Assembly: GCF_041886205.1 (NCBI RefSeq)
Contig: NZ_CP169029.1
Source: Escherichia coli
GTDB lineage: Bacteria; Pseudomonadota; Gammaproteobacteria; Enterobacterales; Enterobacteriaceae
Length of the DNA: 64,000 bases
Strand: one strand, 5' to 3'
Positions 8,096 through 19,667 of this stretch are shown piece after piece; the first letter of the stretch is position 1; every line of letters begins with the position of its first letter. The position numbers and the translations under genes are program-made. The notes below the pieces were generated by a model, which searched no databases, had not been told where the DNA came from, and saw only the letters and a list, made by a program, of their open reading frames with translations.

Positions 8096-8122
8096 TTTTC
8101 GGCCTGAAATGAGAAAACTTTA
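8096..8122 (-). promoter_or_regulatory. Sigma-28 (FliA) class-3 flagellar promoter of tsr
   Basis: On the minus strand TAAAGTTT-N11-GCCGAAAA, one mismatch from consensus TAAAGTTT-N11-GCCGATAA, about 30 nt upstream of the tsr ATG. Confidence 0.7.
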
Positions 8123-8292
8123 TAGGTAGCGACTTGAAACTGGTTAATTTTACCTCACTTTTTTAATTTTTGTTCAAAAATACAATAACCACTTATTGAT
8201 ACATTTTCTTTTCTTATTTTTTTCACACGAATTGTATCTATTTTGAACGAAATATTTTATAGAGTGTGGAATTTTAAGAAAGGACATCTGAA

Positions 8293-8835
8293 ATGTTAAA
8301 CCGTGACTTCGATCATCTCTCAACGCTATTACATCTCTTTTTTGAACGTGAGGATATTTGCCAAAAGCTTAATATTATTGACCAAAACAATATCACCGGT
8401 TGGGAAGTGTGGTTCCAGGTAGAATTTGCTAATATGCTCTGCTCAACAGACCATGAATGGTGGCGTGAACAGGCACTTTCCTGTGATATGCGCAAAAAAC
8501 CTGAACGCCCGACACTACGCACAGATTTCTTACTACGTAAAAAAGGCTGGGCGCAAGATAGCTATATCGCGCTTGAAATAAAACAAAACAGTGACGCGAC
8601 CAGTTGTGTTAAAAATATGATCGCAGACTTAGAAAAAAGCGCCAAAATCAAACGTTCAGAACTCGAGTTACGCAGTTTCTGGACCCTGGGTATCACCCCT
8701 GTGATAGACAGAGAAAGGCTGGATTCTCTCATCGATTGCTATTTAGATGAGAAATTTTATCTTACTAAATCTCGTAAAAAACACGTTTTACTTAAAGAAA
8801 TAAATAATACACCATATTCCTATATTGTTATTTAA
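8293..8835 (+). CDS. Hypothetical 180-aa protein with PD-(D/E)XK-like motif, AT-rich
   Basis: 543-nt ORF in strongly AT-rich DNA where long ORFs are unlikely by chance; AAGGA upstream of ATG; motif D(TDFLL)...E-I-K (YIALEIKQ) spaced like a PD-(D/E)XK nuclease core; I do not recall a gene between tsr and btsT in K-12. Confidence 0.5.
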   Translation: MLNRDFDHLSTLLHLFFEREDICQKLNIIDQNNITGWEVWFQVEFANMLCSTDHEWWREQALSCDMRKKPERPTLRTDFLLRKKGWAQDSYIALEIKQNSDATSCVKNMIADLEKSAKIKRSELELRSFWTLGITPVIDRERLDSLIDCYLDEKFYLTKSRKKHVLLKEINNTPYSYIVI

Positions 8836-8943
8836 TATTTATAGCATGAATATAATTTTTATATGAGTTACACAACCGAGGGCTAAAAATCGCTTCGGTT
8901 GTGATCATCATCACATAAATAACCTTCATAAACCTTGCTCAAA

Positions 8944-8971
8944 ACCGCTCAACCGCAAAACTGACCGCTTA
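8944..8971 (+). promoter_or_regulatory. Putative BtsR (YehT) LytTR-type response-regulator binding site upstream of btsT
   Basis: Direct repeats ACCGCTCA ... ACCGCTTA separated by about 12 bp, matching the remembered ACC(G/T)CT(C/T)A repeat motif of the yjiY/btsT promoter. Confidence 0.5.
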
Positions 8972-9127
8972 CGTCCCTAAAATAACCACTCAGTTATTTA
9001 CCTTACTTTACGCGCGCGTAACTCTGGCAACATCACTGCAGGATAGCGGTCAATTTACCTCCTCAAACGCAACGCAAACCTAGAACGGCTTCGGCCAACG
9101 ATTAATCAATACATGCCAGGTTTTACT

Positions 9128-11278
9128 ATGGATACTAAAAAGATATTCAAGCACATACCCTGGGTGATTCTCGGAATCATCGGTGCATTCTGCCTCGCGG
9201 TAGTTGCATTACGTCGGGGGGAGCACGTCAGCGCCCTGTGGATCGTGGTCGCCTCTGTGTCGGTGTATCTGGTGGCGTATCGCTACTACAGTCTGTACAT
9301 CGCCCAGAAGGTGATGAAACTCGACCCCACGCGCGCGACGCCTGCGGTTATTAACAACGACGGTCTGAACTACGTTCCGACCAACCGTTACGTGTTGTTT
9401 GGTCACCACTTCGCCGCTATCGCCGGTGCTGGTCCGCTGGTCGGTCCGGTTCTCGCCGCACAGATGGGCTACCTGCCTGGCACGCTGTGGCTGCTGGCGG
9501 GGGTAGTACTGGCCGGTGCGGTTCAGGACTTTATGGTGCTGTTTATCTCCTCTCGCCGTAACGGCGCATCTCTCGGTGAGATGATCAAAGAAGAGATGGG
9601 GCCAGTTCCGGGGACTATCGCGCTGTTTGGCTGTTTCTTAATCATGATCATCATCCTCGCCGTTCTGGCGCTGATTGTGGTTAAAGCCCTGGCCGAAAGT
9701 CCGTGGGGTGTCTTCACCGTTTGCTCAACCGTACCGATTGCGCTGTTTATGGGTATCTACATGCGCTTTATCCGTCCGGGGCGTGTGGGTGAAGTCTCTG
9801 TCATTGGTATCGTGCTGCTGGTTGCCTCTATCTACTTCGGTGGCGTGATTGCTCACGATCCGTACTGGGGTCCGGCACTGACCTTTAAAGACACCACCAT
9901 TACCTTCGCGCTGATTGGCTATGCGTTTGTTTCCGCACTGCTGCCGGTGTGGCTGATCCTCGCACCGCGCGACTATCTGGCAACCTTCCTGAAAATCGGC
10001 GTTATCGTCGGCCTGGCGCTGGGTATCGTGGTGCTGAACCCGGAACTGAAAATGCCTGCGATGACCCAGTACATTGACGGTACTGGCCCGCTATGGAAAG
10101 GCGCTCTGTTCCCGTTCCTGTTCATCACCATCGCCTGTGGTGCGGTATCTGGCTTCCACGCGCTGATCTCTTCCGGTACGACGCCGAAACTGCTGGCTAA
10201 TGAAACCGACGCGCGTTTCATTGGCTACGGCGCAATGCTGATGGAGTCCTTCGTGGCGATTATGGCGCTGGTTGCTGCATCCATCATCGAACCGGGTCTT
10301 TACTTCGCGATGAATACCCCGCCTGCTGGCCTTGGCATCACCATGCCTAACCTGCATGAAATGGGTGGCGAGAACGCGCCGATCATCATGGCGCAGCTGA
10401 AAGACGTTACCGCACACGCGGCAGCGACAGTCAGCTCCTGGGGCTTCGTGATTTCGCCAGAGCAGATCCTGCAAACCGCGAAAGACATTGGTGAGCCTTC
10501 TGTCCTGAACCGTGCAGGTGGTGCGCCGACGCTGGCGGTAGGTATCGCTCACGTGTTCCACAAAGTGCTGCCGATGGCTGACATGGGCTTCTGGTATCAC
10601 TTCGGTATTCTGTTCGAAGCCCTGTTCATCCTGACCGCGCTGGATGCGGGTACTCGTTCTGGCCGCTTTATGCTGCAAGACCTGCTGGGTAACTTCATCC
10701 CGTTCCTGAAAAAAACCGACTCTCTGGTTGCCGGTATCATCGGTACTGCGGGCTGTGTGGGTCTGTGGGGCTACCTGCTGTATCAGGGCGTGGTCGATCC
10801 GCTGGGCGGCGTTAAGAGCCTGTGGCCGCTGTTCGGTATTTCCAACCAGATGCTGGCAGCCGTAGCGCTGGTACTGGGCACCGTTGTGCTGATTAAGATG
10901 AAGCGCACCCAATACATCTGGGTAACTGTTGTTCCGGCTGTATGGCTGCTTATCTGCACCACCTGGGCGCTGGGTCTGAAACTGTTCAGCACCAACCCGC
11001 AGATGGAAGGCTTCTTCTACATGGCAAGCCAGTACAAAGAGAAGATTGCTAACGGTACTGACCTGACGGCGCAGCAGATTGCCAACATGAACCACATCGT
11101 TGTGAACAACTACACCAACGCGGGCCTGAGTATTCTGTTCCTGATTGTGGTGTACAGCATCATCTTCTACGGTTTCAAAACCTGGCTTGCGGTGCGTAAC
11201 AGCGACAAACGTACTGACAAAGAAACACCGTACGTTCCAATCCCGGAAGGCGGCGTGAAGATCTCTTCGCACCACTAA
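9128..11278 (+). CDS. btsT: Pyruvate/H+ symporter, CstA-family transporter
   Basis: 716 aa from ATG at 9128 (MDTKKIFKHIPWVILG); many TM helices; CstA family architecture; synteny with yjiX-yjiA. Confidence 0.88.
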   Translation: MDTKKIFKHIPWVILGIIGAFCLAVVALRRGEHVSALWIVVASVSVYLVAYRYYSLYIAQKVMKLDPTRATPAVINNDGLNYVPTNRYVLFGHHFAAIAGAGPLVGPVLAAQMGYLPGTLWLLAGVVLAGAVQDFMVLFISSRRNGASLGEMIKEEMGPVPGTIALFGCFLIMIIILAVLALIVVKALAESPWGVFTVCSTVPIALFMGIYMRFIRPGRVGEVSVIGIVLLVASIYFGGVIAHDPYWGPALTFKDTTITFALIGYAFVSALLPVWLILAPRDYLATFLKIGVIVGLALGIVVLNPELKMPAMTQYIDGTGPLWKGALFPFLFITIACGAVSGFHALISSGTTPKLLANETDARFIGYGAMLMESFVAIMALVAASIIEPGLYFAMNTPPAGLGITMPNLHEMGGENAPIIMAQLKDVTAHAAATVSSWGFVISPEQILQTAKDIGEPSVLNRAGGAPTLAVGIAHVFHKVLPMADMGFWYHFGILFEALFILTALDAGTRSGRFMLQDLLGNFIPFLKKTDSLVAGIIGTAGCVGLWGYLLYQGVVDPLGGVKSLWPLFGISNQMLAAVALVLGTVVLIKMKRTQYIWVTVVPAVWLLICTTWALGLKLFSTNPQMEGFFYMASQYKEKIANGTDLTAQQIANMNHIVVNNYTNAGLSILFLIVVYSIIFYGFKTWLAVRNSDKRTDKETPYVPIPEGGVKISSHH

Positions 11279-11287
11279 CCGTGTTTA

Positions 11288-11314
11288 GCCCCGCTTCGGC
11301 GGGGCTTTGTTCTT
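11288..11314 (+). terminator. Hairpin plus T-run after btsT (terminator or attenuator before yjiX)
   Basis: gccccgc / ttcg / gcggggc followed by tttgttctt. Confidence 0.6.
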
Positions 11315-11327
11315 ATCAGAGTGAACT

Positions 11328-11531
11328 ATGTTTGGTAACTTAGGACAGGCAAAAAAATATCTCGGCCAGGCGGCGAAGATGTTGATTGGCATTCCAGACT
11401 ACGACAACTACGTCGAGCATATGAAGACCAACCATCCCGACAAACCGTACATGAGCTATGAAGAATTCTTCCGCGAACGCCAGAACGCGCGCTACGGCGG
11501 CGATGGTAAAGGCGGTATGCGCTGTTGTTAA
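11328..11531 (+). CDS. yjiX: Small DUF466-family protein
   Basis: 67-aa ORF between btsT and yjiA; conserved position. Confidence 0.75.
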
Positions 11532-11541
11532 TGGAGAGAGC

Positions 11542-12498
11542 ATGAACCCGATTGCAGTTACCCTACTCACCGGTTTTTTAGGCGCGGGAAAAACCACCCT
11601 GCTGCGCCATATTCTTAATGAACAACACGGCTACAAGATTGCCGTGATTGAAAACGAATTCGGCGAAATCTCCGTTGATGATCAATTGATTGGTGATCGC
11701 GCAACGCAGATCAAAACGCTGACCAACGGCTGCATCTGCTGTTCGCGCTCCAACGAGCTGGAGGACGCGCTACTCGACCTGCTGGATAATCTCGACAAGG
11801 GCAATATTCAGTTCGATCGTCTGGTCATTGAATGCACCGGCATGGCCGATCCCGGCCCGATTATTCAGACCTTTTTCTCCCATGAGATTTTATGCCAGCG
11901 CTACCTGCTGGACGGCGTGATTGCGCTGGTGGATGCGGTACATGCCGATGAGCAGATGAACCAGTTCACCATCGCCCAGTCACAGGTTGGCTACGCCGAC
12001 CGTATTCTGCTGACTAAAACCGACGTCGCAGGCGAAGCAGAAAAACTGCGTGAACGCCTGGCGCGCATCAACGCCCGTGCACCGGTCTACACCGTTACCC
12101 ACGGCGACATCGACCTGGGCCTGCTGTTCAACACCAACGGTTTTATGCTGGAAGAAAACGTCGTCAGCACCAAACCGCGTTTCCACTTTATCGCGGATAA
12201 ACAAAACGATATTTCGTCGATTGTGGTGGAACTGGATTACCCGGTAGATATCAGCGAAGTTTCCCGGGTGATGGAAAACCTGCTGCTGGAATCGGCGGAT
12301 AAACTGCTGCGTTACAAAGGGATGCTGTGGATTGACGGCGAACCTAACCGCCTGCTGTTCCAGGGCGTCCAGCGCCTCTACAGCGCCGACTGGGACAGGC
12401 CATGGGGCGATGAAAAACCGCATAGCACGATGGTGTTTATCGGGATTCAGTTGCCGGAGGATGAGATTCGGGCAGCGTTTGCGGGGTTGAGGAAGTAA
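11542..12498 (+). CDS. yjiA: CobW/G3E-family metal-binding GTPase
   Basis: 318 aa from ATG 11542; P-loop GFLGAGKTTL, CxCC metal motif (NGCICCS); stop of yjiX 10 bp upstream. Confidence 0.85.
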   Translation: MNPIAVTLLTGFLGAGKTTLLRHILNEQHGYKIAVIENEFGEISVDDQLIGDRATQIKTLTNGCICCSRSNELEDALLDLLDNLDKGNIQFDRLVIECTGMADPGPIIQTFFSHEILCQRYLLDGVIALVDAVHADEQMNQFTIAQSQVGYADRILLTKTDVAGEAEKLRERLARINARAPVYTVTHGDIDLGLLFNTNGFMLEENVVSTKPRFHFIADKQNDISSIVVELDYPVDISEVSRVMENLLLESADKLLRYKGMLWIDGEPNRLLFQGVQRLYSADWDRPWGDEKPHSTMVFIGIQLPEDEIRAAFAGLRK

Positions 12499-12832
12499 TT
12501 ACCTTAACCTACTCATACGAAGCGGACGAGGATAAAATCCTATCATTTTCCGTTCGCTTCATTATTTTATTTTCTTTCCAATGCCCATTCAAATTAAAAA
12601 TATAACTCTGCCATAACTTCCTGAACACAGATGTAATTACATTGCCACCTCTCATACTTTTAAAAACGATCCATATGACAAGTCGTCCTATTGGGGCGTG
12701 ATAGATGTATTAATTTCCAAATATGCAAACATTCTGATACAGTCCCAAAAAGAAAATAATTACCAACCCAGATAATCAGCAAATAAATTAATGACAGTTG
12801 AATTATAATCAACACGAATACAAGAGATTAAC

Positions 12833-14683
12833 ATGGCAACAATAATCCCAACAATCAGTAGCTGCAACGATAAAATTACTGCCGGAGAGAAAAGGCTGGC
12901 AAGAATTCTGGAAAGAGGACTAGGCGAAGAGTGCTGCTGTTGGTATGACATTCCCACGGGTGATAAGCATCTTCACCCAGATTTTATGATACTTTCGCCA
13001 GAAAAAGGCATTATTTTTCTCGAGGTAAAAGATTGGTTTATTACAAAAATAAAAAAAGCCAACAAGTCTAATGTGTGGTATGAGACACAAAATGGCATTC
13101 AATCTTTAAAGAATCCGATAGAACAAGTTAGGCGATATGCTTTCGAAGCTGTAAACCAGTTAAAAAAAGACCCCCTATTGCGCCAACAGGATGATCGTTA
13201 CAATGGCAATCTTCTTTTCCCCTATGGATATGGCGTCTACTTTAGTAATATTACACGAGAAGCATTAAATAATAAATTTACTCAAGAAGAGCTGCTCGGG
13301 ATCTTCCCATCAGATCTCATCATCTGCAAAGACGAACTAAATGAATTCATGTCAAAAGAGGATGTTTCATCTAAAATACATTCGTTAATTAAATATGACT
13401 TCAAATGTCATGCTACACAAGAACAGTTGAACAGGATTAGATGGCACTTATACCCCGATGTCAGAATAGAAAGGGAAAAGAGAAGTAAAAACCGTGATGA
13501 ATTGAGTGTCGATGCACCAACCATCATTTCTATCCTGGATACTCAACAGGAACAACTTGCCAGGAGTATGAGAGATGGCCACCGAATCATTCATGGTGTT
13601 GCAGGTTCAGGGAAGACATTGATCCTCTATCATCGCTGTCAGGAATTAGCGAAAAAAAATGACAGCGAAAAGCCAATACTTGTCATTTGCTACAATATTA
13701 CTTTAGCCAAAAAACTTCGGTCGATGTTCATCAATCATCCCTTTGCAGAGAAAATAAAGGTTAAAAATTTTCATGCATGGTGTTTCCAACAAATTAAAGA
13801 AAACAAGATCACCATTCCAGAAGGGGATAATATTTTTGAAAATATGGAGCAAGCGTTGACTGATGGTTTCAACACAGGAAAAATAAAACCAGAACAATAC
13901 AGCGCTGTATTAATTGATGAAGGACATGATTTTAAGCCCGAATGGTTAAAAATCCTTGCAAAAATGACTGACTCTCAGGACGAGAATTTGCTATTCCTTT
14001 ATGATGATGCTCAGTCAATTTACCAAAAAAAGAAAGCATTAGACTTTACACTGTCCAGCGTAGATATTAAAGCGACAGGGCGCACAACTATTCTTAATAT
14101 AAATTATAGAAACACACAGCAAATCCTACACTTTGCCAGTTGCATTGCATTTAATTATCTTAATAGCCATATCGATAGTTCTTTAACCTATCATAAACCT
14201 GCTGCGGGAGGAATGAATGGCGATTATCCCAACCTTGAACATTTCGACACACAGGACGAAGAAATAGCAAGAGCAGTCAAATGGATTACAGAGCAAAATG
14301 AACAAGGGATTCCGTGGTCTGAAATTGCTATACTAAGTCCATCAACTCATACCCTTTCTAACTCTCTAAGTTCTGTACTTGAATCGAAAAACATCCCCTT
14401 TAATCTTATTGTAAGCTCTGCAGATAAAAAATCCTGGACGCCAGAACAAGAGCGTGTTTCTGTGATGCCATTACCCAGCAGCAAAGGGCTTGAGTTTCAC
14501 TCAGTTGTCATTATTGACGCAGCGAGAACACGGGATAATAGCGATGATTTGAGTGAGGATATAAAGAGACTCTATGTAGGTTTTACCCGAGCACGTTGCA
14601 ATCTCTTGGTAACCTTGCACGGTGAAGGTGCGTTAAATGAGCATCTACTAAAAACCTATGAGCAAAGCCCACAATATATGTAA
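12833..14683 (+). CDS. NERD-domain nuclease fused to SF1 (UvrD-like) helicase; Nhi-like candidate anti-phage protein
   Basis: 616 aa; N-terminal NERD-like region with PD...(E)VK core (HPDFMIL ... IIFLEVKDW); Walker A GVAGSGKT, Walker B VLIDEGHDF, SF1 motif V/VI-like LPSSKGLEFHSVVII and LYVGFTRARCNLLV; AT-rich; occupies the slot that holds mrr-hsdRMS in K-12. Confidence 0.75.
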   Translation: MATIIPTISSCNDKITAGEKRLARILERGLGEECCCWYDIPTGDKHLHPDFMILSPEKGIIFLEVKDWFITKIKKANKSNVWYETQNGIQSLKNPIEQVRRYAFEAVNQLKKDPLLRQQDDRYNGNLLFPYGYGVYFSNITREALNNKFTQEELLGIFPSDLIICKDELNEFMSKEDVSSKIHSLIKYDFKCHATQEQLNRIRWHLYPDVRIEREKRSKNRDELSVDAPTIISILDTQQEQLARSMRDGHRIIHGVAGSGKTLILYHRCQELAKKNDSEKPILVICYNITLAKKLRSMFINHPFAEKIKVKNFHAWCFQQIKENKITIPEGDNIFENMEQALTDGFNTGKIKPEQYSAVLIDEGHDFKPEWLKILAKMTDSQDENLLFLYDDAQSIYQKKKALDFTLSSVDIKATGRTTILNINYRNTQQILHFASCIAFNYLNSHIDSSLTYHKPAAGGMNGDYPNLEHFDTQDEEIARAVKWITEQNEQGIPWSEIAILSPSTHTLSNSLSSVLESKNIPFNLIVSSADKKSWTPEQERVSVMPLPSSKGLEFHSVVIIDAARTRDNSDDLSEDIKRLYVGFTRARCNLLVTLHGEGALNEHLLKTYEQSPQYM

Positions 14684-14827
14684 AAATGATAAATGATCTC
14701 CATAACGCCCGGTAACGCGGTACCGGGCGAAATGAATGCATATCTAAGATATTAGTCACGCCTGATAGCCGCTACCAAAAACACCATCATCTCCCTCGCA
14801 TCTTTGCGGTGATAAAATCGTACCATT

Positions 14828-15121
14828 TTGCTGTTAAATTCCAGCGCGTTAGCCGCTGGAATTAACAAGATCAGACTTCCGGCAACGAAGAGCCAGTTAT
14901 TACAAAAATTACTGGCAAAAGAGATAAAAAGCATTGTTGACAACACATCGAAATATCCTGACTGGAGTAAACACGATGATATTAAAGCGAAACTGAAAGT
15001 TGAACTTATTCTGCTTCTACACAAGCATAAGTTCCCGTCAGTAGCGAATGATGATGTTTATATGGGTGTGCTGGCACAGGCAGAGAGTTTTAAAGAACAT
15101 CATATGAGTCCTATAAATTAA
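14828..15121 (+). pseudogene. Orphan ORF fragment without ATG start, possible relic of a displaced restriction cassette
   Basis: 97-codon frame beginning at TTG with no convincing RBS; reads like the C-terminal tail of a larger protein; located between the NERD-helicase gene and symE. Confidence 0.3.
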
Positions 15122-15299
15122 TCATGAAGGCTGGATACACTTTGTTATCCGGCCATTGTGAATTAACGTTAATTTTTCTTCCAAATCTTTCCAGTAACGC
15201 TTTTATTATTTTCTATTTTTAGCTGGACTTTCCCTGTATTTACTGATGATATGTCCAGGTATTTAGCGCGGTGCGGATGTGCGCCAACACACCCGCACC

Positions 15300-15376
15300 A
15301 CTCATCACAATCACTATTTTCAAGGAATAGCAGTTATGACTGACACGCATTTTATTGCACAACCGTTCGAAGCAGA
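15300..15376 (-). ncRNA. symR: Expected position of SymR antisense sRNA (type I antitoxin) overlapping the symE RBS and start
   Basis: Placement inferred from the known symE/symR arrangement; boundaries not determinable from sequence alone. Confidence 0.35.
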
Positions 15377-15677
15377 AGTCTCCCCGGCAAATAACCGTCA
15401 ATTAACCGTGAGTTATGCGAGCCGCTACCCGGATTACAGCCGTATTCCCGCCATCACCCTGAAAGGTCAGTGGCTGGAAGCCGCCGGTTTTGCCACCGGC
15501 ACGGCGGTAGATGTCAAAGTAATGGAAGGCTGTATTGTCCTCACCGCCCAACAACCCGCCGCCGAAGAGAGCGAACTGATGCAGTCGCTGCGCCAGGTGT
15601 GCAAACTGTCGGCGCGTAAACAAAAGCAGGTGCAGGATTTTATTGGGGTGATTGCCGGTAAACAGAAAGTCGCCTGA
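15336..15677 (+). CDS. symE: SOS-induced toxin SymE (AbrB/MazE-like fold endoribonuclease)
   Basis: 113 aa from ATG 15336 with AAGGAA SD; sequence [25 protein letters not shown] ... matches remembered SymE (YjiW). Confidence 0.8.
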
Positions 15678-15684
15678 TAAATTG

Positions 15685-15716
15685 ACCCGGTAGCGCCAGT
15701 GCTACCGGGTATTATT
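15685..15716. terminator. Bidirectional hairpin between convergent symE and GmrSD-like gene
   Basis: acccggtagc / gccagt / gctaccgggt followed by attatt; lies between stop codons 15677 and 15724. Confidence 0.6.
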
Positions 15717-15723
15717 CGCCACG

Positions 15724-17817
15724 TTATACCAACGCGCTCTCCATCTGTTTTTCAAATGCCTGACGAATTAATCCCATAATGTAAGGAAGTTGTGCGAGGT
15801 CGCTGAAACCAATTTCCACATCACCATTACCCCAGCGCCCAATATTTGTCACATCTTTGGCAATACCTTTCGGATCGACCAGTTCATGAAACTGCATATT
15901 AAGCGACAATCGCAGTCGGCTTTTTTGCGGCACAACATCAACAAAATTCGTTTCAGCTTTAAACGCAATATACAGCTTTAAAACTTCCTGCGTGATCCCT
16001 GCGTCCAGGCGCATAACTTCATCGCGAAGATGATCGAATAACACCCGGCTATGCGAACCATCAGCAAGAAAAGGATAATCACTCAGGCTGTAACTGGTTT
16101 TGTTTTCTGGCTGCCCCCGATAAACAGCTAAAACCTCTTCAGAAAGAGAAGGCGCTTGCCAGACCTGAACCGCGAGATCGGCCAGACGATCGGCTCGGGC
16201 GTGAATGGCGGCTTCATCCCATTTTTCGCACTGTCCAAGACCGATATTCAAATAAAGCGGGCTATGTTTAAAGCCATCTTCAATATCGCGTTTTTCCGCG
16301 AAAGGTCTGTCACTGTAGCGGGAGTTATAGCGCGTTAAAGTGAGATTCCCCAACGTATGTAACAGTTCTTTATGCACACGCTGCCAGTCGCTTCCCAGCT
16401 CTTCACGCCATTTAGCCGACAGATTTTCGTTCTGCGGCATAATGTGCTCAATCGTAAACTCTTCCACGCGCTCTCTGCGTTTATCGTTTTCCAGTCGTCG
16501 TAACCAGTAGCTGCGGCTGCGGAAGTTATAGAGATCGCGCACTTTTAATTCCCGTTTAAATTCATCATCGTTGGGGAAACGACGATATGAAGGCAGGTTC
16601 ATAAAATGTACCTGAATACTTTCCAGATATTTTTCTTTATTAATGACCTTATAAAAAGTGGCAAACGTCTTGTTAAGAGAATTCGTCGGAATCGCACATA
16701 CTGCACGGCGGAAAACATAAGATTCAATTAAACGAATTATGCTCAGGAAATCTTCGTGAGACAAATCGTCATTTTTATAGTCATGATAAAGCGCCAGTAA
16801 GAAAGGATACGCCACATCAACCTTTAACTCGCGCAAATCCTGAAAAGCCGTAGCAAGCGATTTGTCACTTTCTTTTCCCAATGCCATTGCACAGTAATAC
16901 TCCGCGTAGATATGAATATCTTCAACCAGCCGATCTACGCCTTTTTCAGCAACACTCTGGCTGCGGGCATGGAGTTTAAATGCCTCATAGACTTCATCTG
17001 TCCGAGGGATCTCCCCCGTTTTTACCGTCAGATAATGACGCATAAAACTGTCAAAATATTCGCTGTAACCTTGCTGACCAAAGGCGACTTCCATTGGACG
17101 CCAGTGATCTTCATACAACCGGGTTTGATGCTCTGGTTCGAGACCCATCAGAATAAAATTGCGCACCAGATCGGCCTGACTTAACGCCTTACCGGTGGAG
17201 TTCATACTTTCAAAAATCAGTTGCGGATTATCCTGACCACGATTAAGCGCCACATCGACAATTAATAACTTTGCTAACCCTCGACATAAGGGAATCAAGT
17301 CATCCCCGAGTTTGGCAATTTGCTCATCAAAGAAAGTAAAGTTTTCCATTATTCGATGGGAATAGTTTTCTGGCATTGGTCTTTGTTTTATTAACGCCAG
17401 CAAACTGTCTTTATCAGTCTCGGTCAGCAGTAATTTAAAACCTTTCTCGCCGGACTCATAAGGATTGAGCAAATAATAATTACGCAATTTCATTGCCGAA
17501 AAGCCATCAAAAACTTCGTCTTCGCCAAGATGGCGCGATAAAGCCTCAATCAGCAACATTGCGGTCGTCAGCCGCTGCTGACCATCAATGACCAGCAACG
17601 GAGAAATACCAGAAACCTGATACAACCCCTGCTCAATATAAACAACCGAACCGATAAAATGCGCTGATATATCGTCACGCTTTCCGGCACGAATGATGTC
17701 GTCCCAAAGTTGCCGACATTGTTGCCCGGTCCATGAATAGGTGCGTTGATAAATGGGAATAACAAACTGCTGCGAACGTTTTAAAAAATCGAGTAGGCGG
17801 GCTTCTGTAGCTTTCAT
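15724..17817 (-). CDS. Type IV modification-dependent restriction endonuclease, GmrSD family (DUF262 + DUF1524)
   Basis: 697 aa; N-terminal DUF262/ParB-like NTPase motifs (IPIYQRTYSW, IDGQQRLTT); C-terminal DUF1524 His-Me finger motifs (EHIMPQ, HTLGNLTLT); sits where mcrBC lies in K-12. Confidence 0.75.
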   Translation of the reverse strand: MKATEARLLDFLKRSQQFVIPIYQRTYSWTGQQCRQLWDDIIRAGKRDDISAHFIGSVVYIEQGLYQVSGISPLLVIDGQQRLTTAMLLIEALSRHLGEDEVFDGFSAMKLRNYYLLNPYESGEKGFKLLLTETDKDSLLALIKQRPMPENYSHRIMENFTFFDEQIAKLGDDLIPLCRGLAKLLIVDVALNRGQDNPQLIFESMNSTGKALSQADLVRNFILMGLEPEHQTRLYEDHWRPMEVAFGQQGYSEYFDSFMRHYLTVKTGEIPRTDEVYEAFKLHARSQSVAEKGVDRLVEDIHIYAEYYCAMALGKESDKSLATAFQDLRELKVDVAYPFLLALYHDYKNDDLSHEDFLSIIRLIESYVFRRAVCAIPTNSLNKTFATFYKVINKEKYLESIQVHFMNLPSYRRFPNDDEFKRELKVRDLYNFRSRSYWLRRLENDKRRERVEEFTIEHIMPQNENLSAKWREELGSDWQRVHKELLHTLGNLTLTRYNSRYSDRPFAEKRDIEDGFKHSPLYLNIGLGQCEKWDEAAIHARADRLADLAVQVWQAPSLSEEVLAVYRGQPENKTSYSLSDYPFLADGSHSRVLFDHLRDEVMRLDAGITQEVLKLYIAFKAETNFVDVVPQKSRLRLSLNMQFHELVDPKGIAKDVTNIGRWGNGDVEIGFSDLAQLPYIMGLIRQAFEKQMESALV

Positions 17818-18254
17818 TCTGACGTCTTTCCGTGAAGCGATGATTTCGCAATAATAACCGCTTCCTTGTGGAGGTTATAGAGAAATCCTGTTTATCCGCG
17901 ATGAATTGCCCCCTCACTCCACATCCTCCCTACGTAACCCAATATCCCTCAACCGCTCATCACTCATCTGCTGTAACACTCGTCGGGTCTGCATTTGCCG
18001 CCGCCAACGCCTCACCGCCTGCCAGAGTTGCACAAGTCTGATAAACGGCGTTTTGGCTTTGTTTTCGTGAAATTCCATCTGCTGCCTCCTCATCTTTCAG
18101 AGGCTTCATCATCCGCCTTCTGGCAGTTCACAATACAGATGCAAATATTAGTTTTATTTAACATACAGACAGGTTAAAACAGCATCTGCATCCGGTTTTT
18201 TAGCCTCATCTGTACCGGTTTTTCTTTCTGTATGGGCCAAATAAGGAATACAGC

Positions 18255-19667
18255 ATGACGCGTTATCAACATCTGGCGACTCTACTTGCCGAGCGGATTG
18301 AGCAAGGGCTGTATCGTCACGGGGAGAAATTGCCGTCGGTGCGCAGCTTAAGTCAGGAGCACGGCGTCAGCATCAGCACCGTGCAACAGGCGTATCAGAC
18401 GCTGGAAACGATGAGGCTCATCACTCCGCAGCCGCGTTCGGGTTATTTTGTCGCACAACGTAAAGCCCAGCCGCCTGTACCGCCGATGACGCGTCCGGTG
18501 CAGCGCCCGGTGGAAATTACCCAGTGGGATCAGGTGCTGGATATGCTGGAGGCGCATAGCGACAGTTCCATTGTTCCGTTAAGCAAAAGCACGCCGGATG
18601 TCGAAACGCCCAGCCTGAAACCGCTGTGGCGGGAGCTAAGCCGGGTGGTGCAGCATAATCTACAAACCGTTCTCGGTTATGACTTGTTAGCCGGTCAGCG
18701 AGTGTTGCGAGAGCAGATTGCCCGCCTGATGCTCGACAGCGGCTCGGTGGTCACCGCCGATGACATCATCATCACCAGCGGCTGCCATAACTCGATGTCG
18801 CTGGCGTTAATGGCGGTGTGTAAACCGGGCGATATTGTCGCGGTCGAATCCCCCTGTTATTACGGTTCGATGCAGATGCTGCGCGGCATGGGCGTGAAAG
18901 TGATTGAAATCCCAACCGATCCAGAAACTGGCATCAGCGTCGAAGCGCTGGAACTGGCGCTGGAACAGTGGCCGATTAAAGGCATCATTCTGGTGCCAAA
19001 CTGTAATAATCCGCTGGGATTTATTATGCCGGACGCACGCAAACGGGCCGTTCTCTCTCTCGCTCAGCGTCATGATATTGTGATTTTTGAAGATGATGTC
19101 TACGGCGAACTGGCAACGGAGTATCCGCGCCCGCGGACCATCCATTCATGGGATATCGACGGGCGAGTGTTGTTGTGCAGCTCGTTCAGTAAAAGTATTG
19201 CTCCAGGCCTGCGCGTGGGTTGGGTCGCACCGGGGCGTTATCACGATAAACTGCTGCATATGAAATACGCCATCAGCAGCTTTAATGTGCCGTCCACGCA
19301 AATGGCGGCGGCAACGTTTGTGCTGGAAGGTCACTATCATCGCCATATCCGGCGGATGCGGCAGACTTATCAGCGCAATCTGGCGCTTTATACCTGCTGG
19401 ATACGGGAATATTTTCCCTGCGAAATCTGTATTACGCGCCCGAAAGGCGGATTTTTACTGTGGATCGAATTGCCTGAACAGGTCGATATGGTTTGCGTTG
19501 CGCGGCAGCTGTGCCGCATGAAAATCCAGGTGGCGGCAGGCTCGATTTTCTCGGCTTCCGGCAAATATCGTAATTGTCTGCGCATCAACTGCGCTTTGCC
19601 GCTCAGCGAAACCTATCGCGAAGCACTGAAGCAAATTGGCGAAGCCGTGTATCGGGCAATGGAATGA
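18255..19667 (+). CDS. yjiR: MocR-type GntR-family regulator with PLP aminotransferase-like domain
   Basis: 470 aa; N-terminal GntR wHTH (SVRSLSQEHGVSISTVQQAYQTLE) fused to class I/II aminotransferase-fold domain. Confidence 0.8.
   Translation: MTRYQHLATLLAERIEQGLYRHGEKLPSVRSLSQEHGVSISTVQQAYQTLETMRLITPQPRSGYFVAQRKAQPPVPPMTRPVQRPVEITQWDQVLDMLEAHSDSSIVPLSKSTPDVETPSLKPLWRELSRVVQHNLQTVLGYDLLAGQRVLREQIARLMLDSGSVVTADDIIITSGCHNSMSLALMAVCKPGDIVAVESPCYYGSMQMLRGMGVKVIEIPTDPETGISVEALELALEQWPIKGIILVPNCNNPLGFIMPDARKRAVLSLAQRHDIVIFEDDVYGELATEYPRPRTIHSWDIDGRVLLCSSFSKSIAPGLRVGWVAPGRYHDKLLHMKYAISSFNVPSTQMAAATFVLEGHYHRHIRRMRQTYQRNLALYTCWIREYFPCEICITRPKGGFLLWIELPEQVDMVCVARQLCRMKIQVAAGSIFSASGKYRNCLRINCALPLSETYREALKQIGEAVYRAME

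Follow-up and report, generated by a model that had tools for sequence, protein, structure and literature searches.

In a 64,000-nucleotide (nt) stretch of an Escherichia coli chromosome (contig NZ_CP169029.1; the whole stretch is called the window below), the interval from yjiA to yjiS is one immigration control region (ICR) allele, with both variable slots filled otherwise than in strain K-12. The ICR is a textbook defence island of E. coli. We consider it probable that each slot holds an independent, horizontally exchanged single-gene cassette, with a type IV restriction enzyme of the GmrSD family encoded between symE and yjiS (slot 2) and a NERD nuclease-helicase fusion of the Nhi type (the NERD-helicase) encoded between yjiA and symE (slot 1).

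Anatomy of the allele

The nearest complete genome, that of strain 6EVA, differs from the window by 8 single-nucleotide polymorphisms over 17.7 kb. Genes are arranged in the order btsT, yjiX, yjiA, a 616-amino acid (aa) open reading frame (ORF), a short hsdR-like ORF, symR, symE, a 697-aa ORF, yjiS, yjiR, rpn and mdtM (Table 1). BLASTN homology to K-12 is limited to positions 9000–12498, 15205–15673 and 17909 onward. Past the stop codon of yjiA all ICR alleles diverge at once, with homology to the K-12, ST131-type and E. coli C alleles stopping at 12498–12501. A first-pass annotation of this DNA had described yjiA, symE and yjiR as retained framework genes and the K-12 intervals for mrr-hsdRMS and mcrBC as each occupied by another nuclease-type gene. 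Both descriptions were confirmed by BLASTN and Pfam searches, and symR and yjiS are present as well. Compared to the K-12 ICR (mrr-hsdRMS, symER and mcrBC-yjiTV), the framework genes and the break points at the yjiA and yjiS stop codons are alike, whereas the two slots of the window hold other cargo, without any modification enzyme. Cassette-like variation of the ICR was described by Sibley and Raleigh (2004), as cited in PMC12707154.

The inserts are AT-richer than their flanks, as the first-pass annotation had proposed. Compared gene by gene, GC content and GC content at third codon positions were 38.5% and 35% for the NERD-helicase gene and 44.6% and 44% for the GmrSD gene, against 54–56% and 63–68% for the flanking genes. 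Cassette 1 consists of the NERD-helicase gene, a 334-nt AT-rich upstream stretch and a downstream hairpin (GC 0.38, measured over 12499–14910). Cassette 2 consists of the GmrSD gene, a hairpin of its own and an alternative set of the last 8 symE codons (GC 0.447, measured over 15674–17908). The boundaries of the latter were read from the empty-slot alleles at loci L005 and L012, which align with 15200–15653 and then again from 17903/17906. The left boundary falls within symE (15654–15677), so that SymE ends in ...IAGKQKVA if the slot is occupied and in ...ISSKTPR if it is empty. The empty-slot alleles carry a different, C-rich hairpin.

Table 1. Features of the ICR allele in the window (positions count from the first nucleotide of the window)
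Feature	Coordinates	Strand	Basis
yjiA, left framework gene	11542..12498	+	RefSeq annotation of near-identical strain 6EVA
Cassette 1, unique segment, about 2.36 kb, about 38% GC	12499..14858	+	Without homology to K-12, ST131-type and E. coli C alleles
NERD (PD-(D/E)xK) nuclease fused to compact UvrD/PcrA-like superfamily 1 (SF1) helicase, 616 aa	12833..14683	+	Pfam, PADLOC
GC-rich hairpin	14701..14734		Inverted repeat, 17-nt arms, 82% complementary
hsdR 3' remnant, two pieces	14855..15121	+	TBLASTN, BLASTN, PADLOC, RefSeq
symR, antisense antitoxin small RNA	15265..15341	-	Rfam RF01809, full length, 88.4 bits (gathering 61)
symE, 113 aa, framework island kept between both variable slots	15336..15677	+	NCBIfam SymE, 226 bits (cutoff 132)
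Cassette 2, about 2.25 kb, about 45% GC	15654..17902	-	Alignment to empty-slot alleles L005 and L012
Hairpin, perfect 10-bp stem	15685..15710		Inverted repeat ACCCGGTAGC/GCTACCGGGT, 6-nt loop
Single-chain GmrSD-family protein, 697 aa	15724..17817	-	Pfam, PADLOC, motifs
yjiS (DUF1127), right framework gene	17914..18078	-	RefSeq annotation of 6EVA; K-12 homology back at 17909
yjiR, right framework gene	18255..19667	+	ORF list, RefSeq annotation

The first-pass annotation also had both inserts ending in convergent hairpins. Hairpins are indeed present at the two places, but neither passes a scan for a stem followed by a T-run, and no canonical intrinsic terminator was found by that scan at the cassette ends. 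The perfect hairpin at 15685–15710 sits in the 46-nt gap between the convergent symE and GmrSD genes and is likely a bidirectional terminator. The hairpin at 14701–14734 starts 18 nt past the helicase stop codon and is a possible terminator.

The two cassettes assort independently

The distribution of both genes was determined in 5,426 complete E. coli genomes. The NERD-helicase gene was found in 100 of these (1.8%), in one copy each, always chromosomal and always in the ICR. The GmrSD gene was found at ≥95% identity in 1,351 (25%), APEC (avian pathogenic E. coli) O1 and O157:H7 included. Neither is a standard core gene at this position; the first-pass annotation had named core-gene status, with no phage-associated phenotype, as fatal to its proposal. 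The two genes occur together in 40 genomes. As the helicase total is 100, at most 100 of the 1,351 GmrSD genomes could also carry the helicase. In both inspected helicase loci without GmrSD (L004 and L005), symE runs directly to yjiS and slot 2 is empty. Given the co-occurrence of 40 in 100 and these empty slots, the cassettes are independent, and the "cassette pair" of the first-pass annotation does not hold; a two-gene system was rejected on the same counts and loci. That helicase and GmrSD would constitute one two-component defence system straddling symE is therefore barely credible. Both are nuclease-type genes of one hotspot that co-occur in the window and in those 40 genomes, but in addition to the counts and loci above, they lie on opposite strands with symER between them, and the helicase orthologues of seven other genera lack a GmrSD gene beside them.

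A NERD nuclease fused to an SF1 helicase in slot 1

Pfam placed a NERD domain at residues 17–110 of the 616-aa protein, followed by AAA_19, UvrD-helicase and UvrD_C. The PADLOC model C3a187 "NERD+UvrD" (PDLC01087) aligned with residues 1–599 over profile positions 1–547 of 559 (E 2.7e-140). The nuclease residues P49-D50 and E64-V-K66 are invariant in 32 homologues with identity down to 41%, as are the helicase motifs GxGxGKT (255–262), DEGHD (362–366), R417, YRN (425–427) and TRA (585–587). The gene is under purifying selection, with a dN/dS of 0.10–0.13 between E. coli alleles. A PDB sequence search matched only the helicase cores of PcrA, UvrD and Rep. An AF2 (AlphaFold2) model (pLDDT 77.6) returned PcrA, UvrD, Rep and the nuclease-helicase SLFN11 as top folds. 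Among the housekeeping SF1 equivalogs (UvrD, Rep, PcrA, HelD and RecB), the best score was 57.9 bits against NCBIfam cutoffs of 911–1,144; the UvrD, PcrA and Rep models gave about 50–58 bits, with cutoffs of about 900–1,150. With full-length PADLOC matches to both proteins and NCBIfam equivalogs far below cutoff, the assignment of both genes to defence-associated rather than housekeeping families is borne out.

More than 7,000 proteins match the NERD-helicase at E ≤ 1e-10, and the majority of the listed ones have a length of about 615 aa. The relatives recur in defence-type neighbourhoods. Orthologues in the ICR of four other genera are 57–64% identical: the gene directly follows yjiA in Enterobacter kobei and Leclercia, directly follows yjiA-brnTA and precedes an hsdS fragment in Salmonella Enteritidis, and adjoins yjiS-yjiR in Klebsiella aerogenes. 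Elsewhere, the relative adjoins an Hhe-like DUF4011 helicase and an integrase in Yersinia, adjoins an ScoMcrA-like SBD-HNH gene in Serratia, lies on an integrase island in Budvicia, and adjoins a PLD-helicase beside smpB in Photobacterium. Between genera, the helicase gene shows 65–69% DNA identity, yjiA shows 83–86%, and there is no conservation of the intergenic flanks. No conserved partner gene or intergenic element accompanies the helicase across the genera sampled, two Vibrionaceae excepted. In these, Vibrio coralliilyticus and Photobacterium damselae, the orthologue adjoins a divergent class I S-adenosylmethionine-dependent methyltransferase of about 195 aa (L010 7076–7684, L011 7103–7684 and L025 8245–8820), which has no counterpart in the E. 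coli cassette and may be a lineage-specific partner.

E. coli IncF plasmids, Vibrio plasmids and Ralstonia megaplasmids carry paralogues of about 40% identity, the last group accounting for 114 NERD-helicase matches in the plasmid collection. The paralogue on the E. coli IncFIA/IncFII plasmid NZ_AP027831.1 (L022 7043–8791) lies in an accessory region, where its neighbours are a RelE/ParE-NadS toxin-antitoxin pair along with a recombinase and insertion sequence elements. A phage origin of the helicase was rejected, as no full-length homologue was found in 50,697 phage records. In a Leclercia metagenome contig (L016 11957–12442), the helicase gene is followed by a duplicate of the last ~490 nt of yjiA, 81% identical to positions 12010–12498 of the window; this arrangement suggests that the 3' end of yjiA came in together with the cassette or enclosed it on entry.

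An hsdR remnant in place of a type I system

The first-pass annotation had found no N6-adenine methyltransferase (HsdM), HsdS, McrB or Mrr, and TBLASTN agreed. In the whole 64-kb window, the K-12 proteins McrB (GTPase), McrC (nuclease), HsdS, HsdM, HsdR, Mrr and YjiT gave no match at E ≤ 1e-3, symE excepted, and neither did the ST131-type BrnTA, REase, HsdM and HsdS. Of a type I restriction–modification (R-M) system, which comprises HsdM, HsdS and a full HsdR, about 90 C-terminal residues of HsdR alone were matched. This hsdR remnant just upstream of symE had been missed by the first-pass annotation. Residues 901–924 of the ST131-type HsdR match at 14855–14926 and residues 1019–1087 at 14912–15118, with 90% identity (TBLASTN). 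PADLOC REase_I matches at profile positions 959–1026 of 1,029, and RefSeq annotates the remnant as a partial pseudogene. The ST131-type allele reads yjiA-brnTA-REase-hsdM-hsdS-hsdR-symE-yjiS, and by its sequence the remnant is a relic of that type I system with its hsdM-hsdS-hsdR order. Because window positions 14911–15653 align with the ST131-type allele (locus L012) from the 3' end of hsdR on through symE (BLASTN), the helicase cassette displaced an array of the ST131 type. The NERD-helicase gene took the place of an older brnTA-REase-hsdMSR array, with only the hsdR 3' end left. Repeated displacement of type I R-M operons by the helicase may be read from the hsdR remnant in E. coli and the hsdS remnant in Salmonella.

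The ICR of E. coli C (NZ_CP020543.1, L021 23501–25994), classically regarded as empty, is actually occupied between yjiA and yjiS by a 550-aa DUF262 gene (24% identical to the window GmrSD) and an N-terminal hsdR remnant, and it lacks symE. This classical restrictionless strain was also considered as a carrier of the NERD-helicase and rejected, the gene being absent there.

Comparison of the NERD-helicase with named systems

The first-pass annotation knew of no characterised E. coli member of this family, and our literature search found no functional study of it and nothing specific on NERD+UvrD proteins in defence. The same domain fusion occurs in two named entities. One is C3a187 "NERD+UvrD" (Shah et al. 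2018, PMC6546367), whose hidden Markov model (HMM) aligned end to end. C3a187 was rejected as a validated system, since it is a three-instance type III CRISPR accessory cluster (PMC6546367). The other is the UG34-associated NERD-helicase (Mestre et al. 2022, PMC9226505), whose model RTasNERD-Hel aligns with residues 1–594 (E 1.4e-24); such NERD-helicases accompany UG34 reverse transcriptases, which are defence-associated (PMC9226505). Both owe their definition to lying next to type III CRISPR-cas or UG reverse transcriptase genes, whereas in the window and all sampled relatives the gene stands alone. Its neighbours in the window are yjiA, the hsdR remnant and symE, and no cas genes were found in the loci of nine sampled relatives.

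A parallel in organization is given by Nhi of Staphylococcus (Bari et al. 2022) and the Nhi-like proteins (Millman et al. 2022, 10.1101/2022.05.11.491447), which, as here, combine an N-terminal nuclease with a C-terminal SF1 helicase in a single polypeptide whose gene stands alone within variable or defence regions. NERD has been named as the Nhi-like nuclease domain (PMC10952713), and NERD proteins have been implicated in defence as HEC-02 (10.1101/2024.01.29.577857) and ZwsA (10.64898/2026.04.06.716636). The likeness does not extend to full-length homology. The PADLOC Nhi model PDLC02372 matched residues 235–436 over profile positions 183–339 of 470 (E 3.6e-9, 33.8 bits), leaving the nuclease domain unmatched. 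The window helicase is of the UvrD/AAA_19 type. Nhi-like proteins join an N-terminal nuclease to a DUF2075 (PF09848) helicase; here NERD is present, and PF09848 (DUF2075/SLFN-g3) gave a weak, partial match (252–401, E 2e-4, 21 bits), with AAA_19 and UvrD_C scoring higher.

On comparative evidence, the NERD-helicase is a credible stand-alone defence candidate that may be Nhi-like in action and does not belong to the Nhi family. As a nuclease-helicase immunity enzyme, it would use its ATP-driven helicase to load onto invading DNA at ends, gaps or replication intermediates, leaving degradation of the unwound strand to the NERD domain. We hold it about as likely as not that NERD+UvrD proteins constitute a distinct, widespread stand-alone immunity family, analogous and not homologous to Nhi, that recurs as a yjiA-proximal occupant of the ICR across Enterobacteriaceae, has no modification partner and repeatedly displaces type I R-M systems. 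The ICR systems tabulated in a 2025 review are Type I, Mrr, McrBC and GmrSD, a nuclease-helicase class not being among those tabulated (PMC12707154).

A predicted GmrSD-family enzyme in slot 2

The 697-aa protein is organized as DUF262, a helical linker, a DUF1524 His-Me finger and a C-terminal DUF5655. Pfam matched GmrSD_N at 9–222 (E 4e-34), GmrSD_C at 415–547 (E 1.6e-26) and DUF5655 (3.6e-13). The nucleoside triphosphate (NTP)-binding motif VIDGQQRLTT is present at 76–85 (DGQQR 78–82) and is visible in the PDB-match alignments. The His-Me finger is represented by E457-H458-I-M-P461 and the downstream Asn in LGN491LTL. The PDB sequence matches that display the motifs are to DUF262 and SspE. 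Full-length PADLOC matches were led by "Orf5" (741 bits, E 1.9e-223), followed by HEC-06 (about 225 bits) and mREase_IV. The HEC-06 profiles PDLC04157, 04155 and 04154 were matched nearly entirely over about residues 14–555 (E 3e-67 to 1e-61). The dN/dS relative to strain SMS-3-5 is 0.07, indicating purifying selection here too. The gene is co-stranded with yjiS, which lies 96 nt upstream.

The first-pass annotation described this insert as part of a non-K-12 cassette pair. The GmrSD cassette is known biology, GmrSD homologues replacing mcrBC in the ICR having been described already (PMC4437046 and PMC12707154). He et al. (2015) reported that the ICR of APEC O1 holds APECO1_2080, a diverged homologue of GmrSD, at the place of K-12 mcrBC (PMC4437046), and a 2025 EcoSal Plus review tabulates GmrSD in 12% of enterobacterial ICRs (PMC12707154). 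The APEC O1 gene found in our search (H95) lies at the same locus and shows 96.9% nucleotide identity to the window gene over all 2,094 nt. Judged by locus and description, H95 would be APECO1_2080. The annotated lengths differ (733 versus 697 aa), probably through a different choice of start.

APECO1_2080, the prototypes EcoCT596GmrSD and Eco94GmrSD and the window gene have in common DUF262 and DUF1524 in a single chain, DGQQR and (D/E)HxxP. The ICR homologue is stated to be only 24% identical in aa sequence to Eco94GmrSD (He et al. 2015, PMC4437046), and the window protein, unlike the prototype GmrSD enzymes, carries the additional C-terminal DUF5655. HEC-06 and BrxU/SspE are GmrSD-like stand-alone nucleases with demonstrated anti-phage activity, and HEC-06-type proteins stop T4, not unmodified T4-GT7 (10.1101/2024.01.29.577857; 10.1101/2025.02.28.640651). 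The HEC-06 HMMs match residues 14–554 of the window protein; however, HEC-06 was found embedded in Hma systems and not in the ICR, and the best PADLOC model is "Orf5" instead. In the PDB sequence search, BrxU was not found and SspE was matched weakly, at the DUF262 N terminus only.

By analogy with these characterized relatives, we infer a type IV restriction enzyme together with its substrates and anti-phage phenotype. DUF262 would bind NTP and read DNA, and the DUF1524 His-Me finger would then cleave modified-cytosine DNA, such as the hydroxymethylcytosine or glucosyl-hydroxymethylcytosine DNA of T-even phages. Such an enzyme would do without a methyltransferase, since host DNA, being unmodified, does not serve as its substrate.

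RefSeq/PGAP splits the GmrSD ORF in 6EVA and SMS-3-5 into a 387-aa coding sequence and an N-terminal "incomplete" pseudogene (L001 9226–11319 and L002 7219–9312). Neither translation contains a stop or frameshift, and the same split pair of product names lies under the GmrSD match in most other listed genomes. The split probably reflects an annotation artefact that has been propagated. A 1-nt shortfall in some of the O157:H7 matches may mark genuine frameshifts.

Weighing of alternative explanations

Several observations weigh against two working defence cassettes. The sole PADLOC label of the helicase comes from the unvalidated three-instance CRISPR accessory cluster, and because the match to the PADLOC Nhi model is confined to a part of the helicase core, the analogy to Nhi is one of architecture and not of homology. 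In 6EVA, the closest genome, a T at window position 13418 changes helicase codon 196 from CAA to TAA, which RefSeq records as an internal stop (with C at this position, the gene of the window is intact), and in LR-62-2 an IS903B insertion lies within the gene. Since disrupted alleles occur in nature, loss of the helicase is tolerated and the gene is dispensable. In Vibrio the relative lies amid housekeeping genes, and the RefSeq split attaches a pseudogene label to the GmrSD gene even though the ORF is intact.

Some of these points would also be expected if the NERD-helicase were a non-immune accessory enzyme of repair, recombination or replicon maintenance that rides variable regions and processes ends in the manner of Dna2 or AddA. 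Its core resembles UvrD, PcrA and Rep, Dna2 is among the fold matches, the Vibrio setting and the natural knock-out alleles fit, and the IncF and Ralstonia megaplasmid paralogues could serve plasmid biology. We regard this as unlikely, as the gene is restricted to 1.8% of E. coli and always to the ICR, occupies the same ICR region in four other genera, lies elsewhere beside Hhe-like or ScoMcrA-like genes or integrases, has a foreign composition and scores far below the NCBIfam cutoffs for repair-helicase equivalogs. It is highly improbable that one or both cassettes are decaying, currently functionless relics. The hsdR remnant in the same interval and the RefSeq pseudogene labels on the N-terminal part of GmrSD and on the 6EVA helicase point that way, but both ORFs are uninterrupted in the window with catalytic motifs intact, their dN/dS of 0.07–0.13 is within about fourfold of that of neighbouring core genes (0.03), and in 6EVA and SMS-3-5 neither a stop nor a frameshift underlies the RefSeq split. 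Equally doubtful is an RNA-targeting effector whose NERD domain acts on RNA instead of DNA. ZwsA, a protein with a NERD domain, is reported in a 2026 preprint to be an RNA endonuclease directed at RNA phages (10.64898/2026.04.06.716636), and the RNA-active SF1 helicases Upf1, Ighmbp2 and SLFN are among the fold matches. In sequence and in fold, however, the DNA helicases PcrA, UvrD and Rep match best, and ZwsA is built differently (VHS, DUF647, NERD and S4), without a helicase.

Other features of the window

The symE–symR framework island encodes a SymE protein 94.7% identical in aa sequence to that of K-12, with the antisense SymR overlapping the symE start (15336), as in a type I toxin-antitoxin pair. 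Adjoining the ICR, an Rpn-family recombination-promoting nuclease gene (yjiP/rpnD, 19910–20866, minus strand) is an intact 318-aa ORF, while the K-12 copy is a pseudogene. Rpn proteins have been proposed as promoters of RecA-independent exchange at the ICR locus (PMC4498929). A further variable slot lies between tsr and btsT, where window positions 8100–9100 hold a low-GC insert (about 36–40%) found in 362 of the 5,426 genomes; in E. coli C this slot is occupied by the hpa operon. The insert contains a 180-aa ORF (8293–8835, plus strand) with a PD-(D/E)xK-like "TDF...LEIKQ" motif, for which Pfam gave only a weak TnsA-like match (E 0.054) and PADLOC no meaningful match.

Implications

The GmrSD part of the allele matters mainly for annotation, as RefSeq systematically splits an intact gene of about a quarter of E. 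coli genomes. If the NERD-helicase is a working single-gene defence, it would be a new class of occupant for the ICR. It would also make a family of thousands of homologues, on plasmids and throughout Gammaproteobacteria, experimentally tractable through an E. coli representative, and would assign a function to the PADLOC model, which so far flags only a CRISPR accessory candidate.

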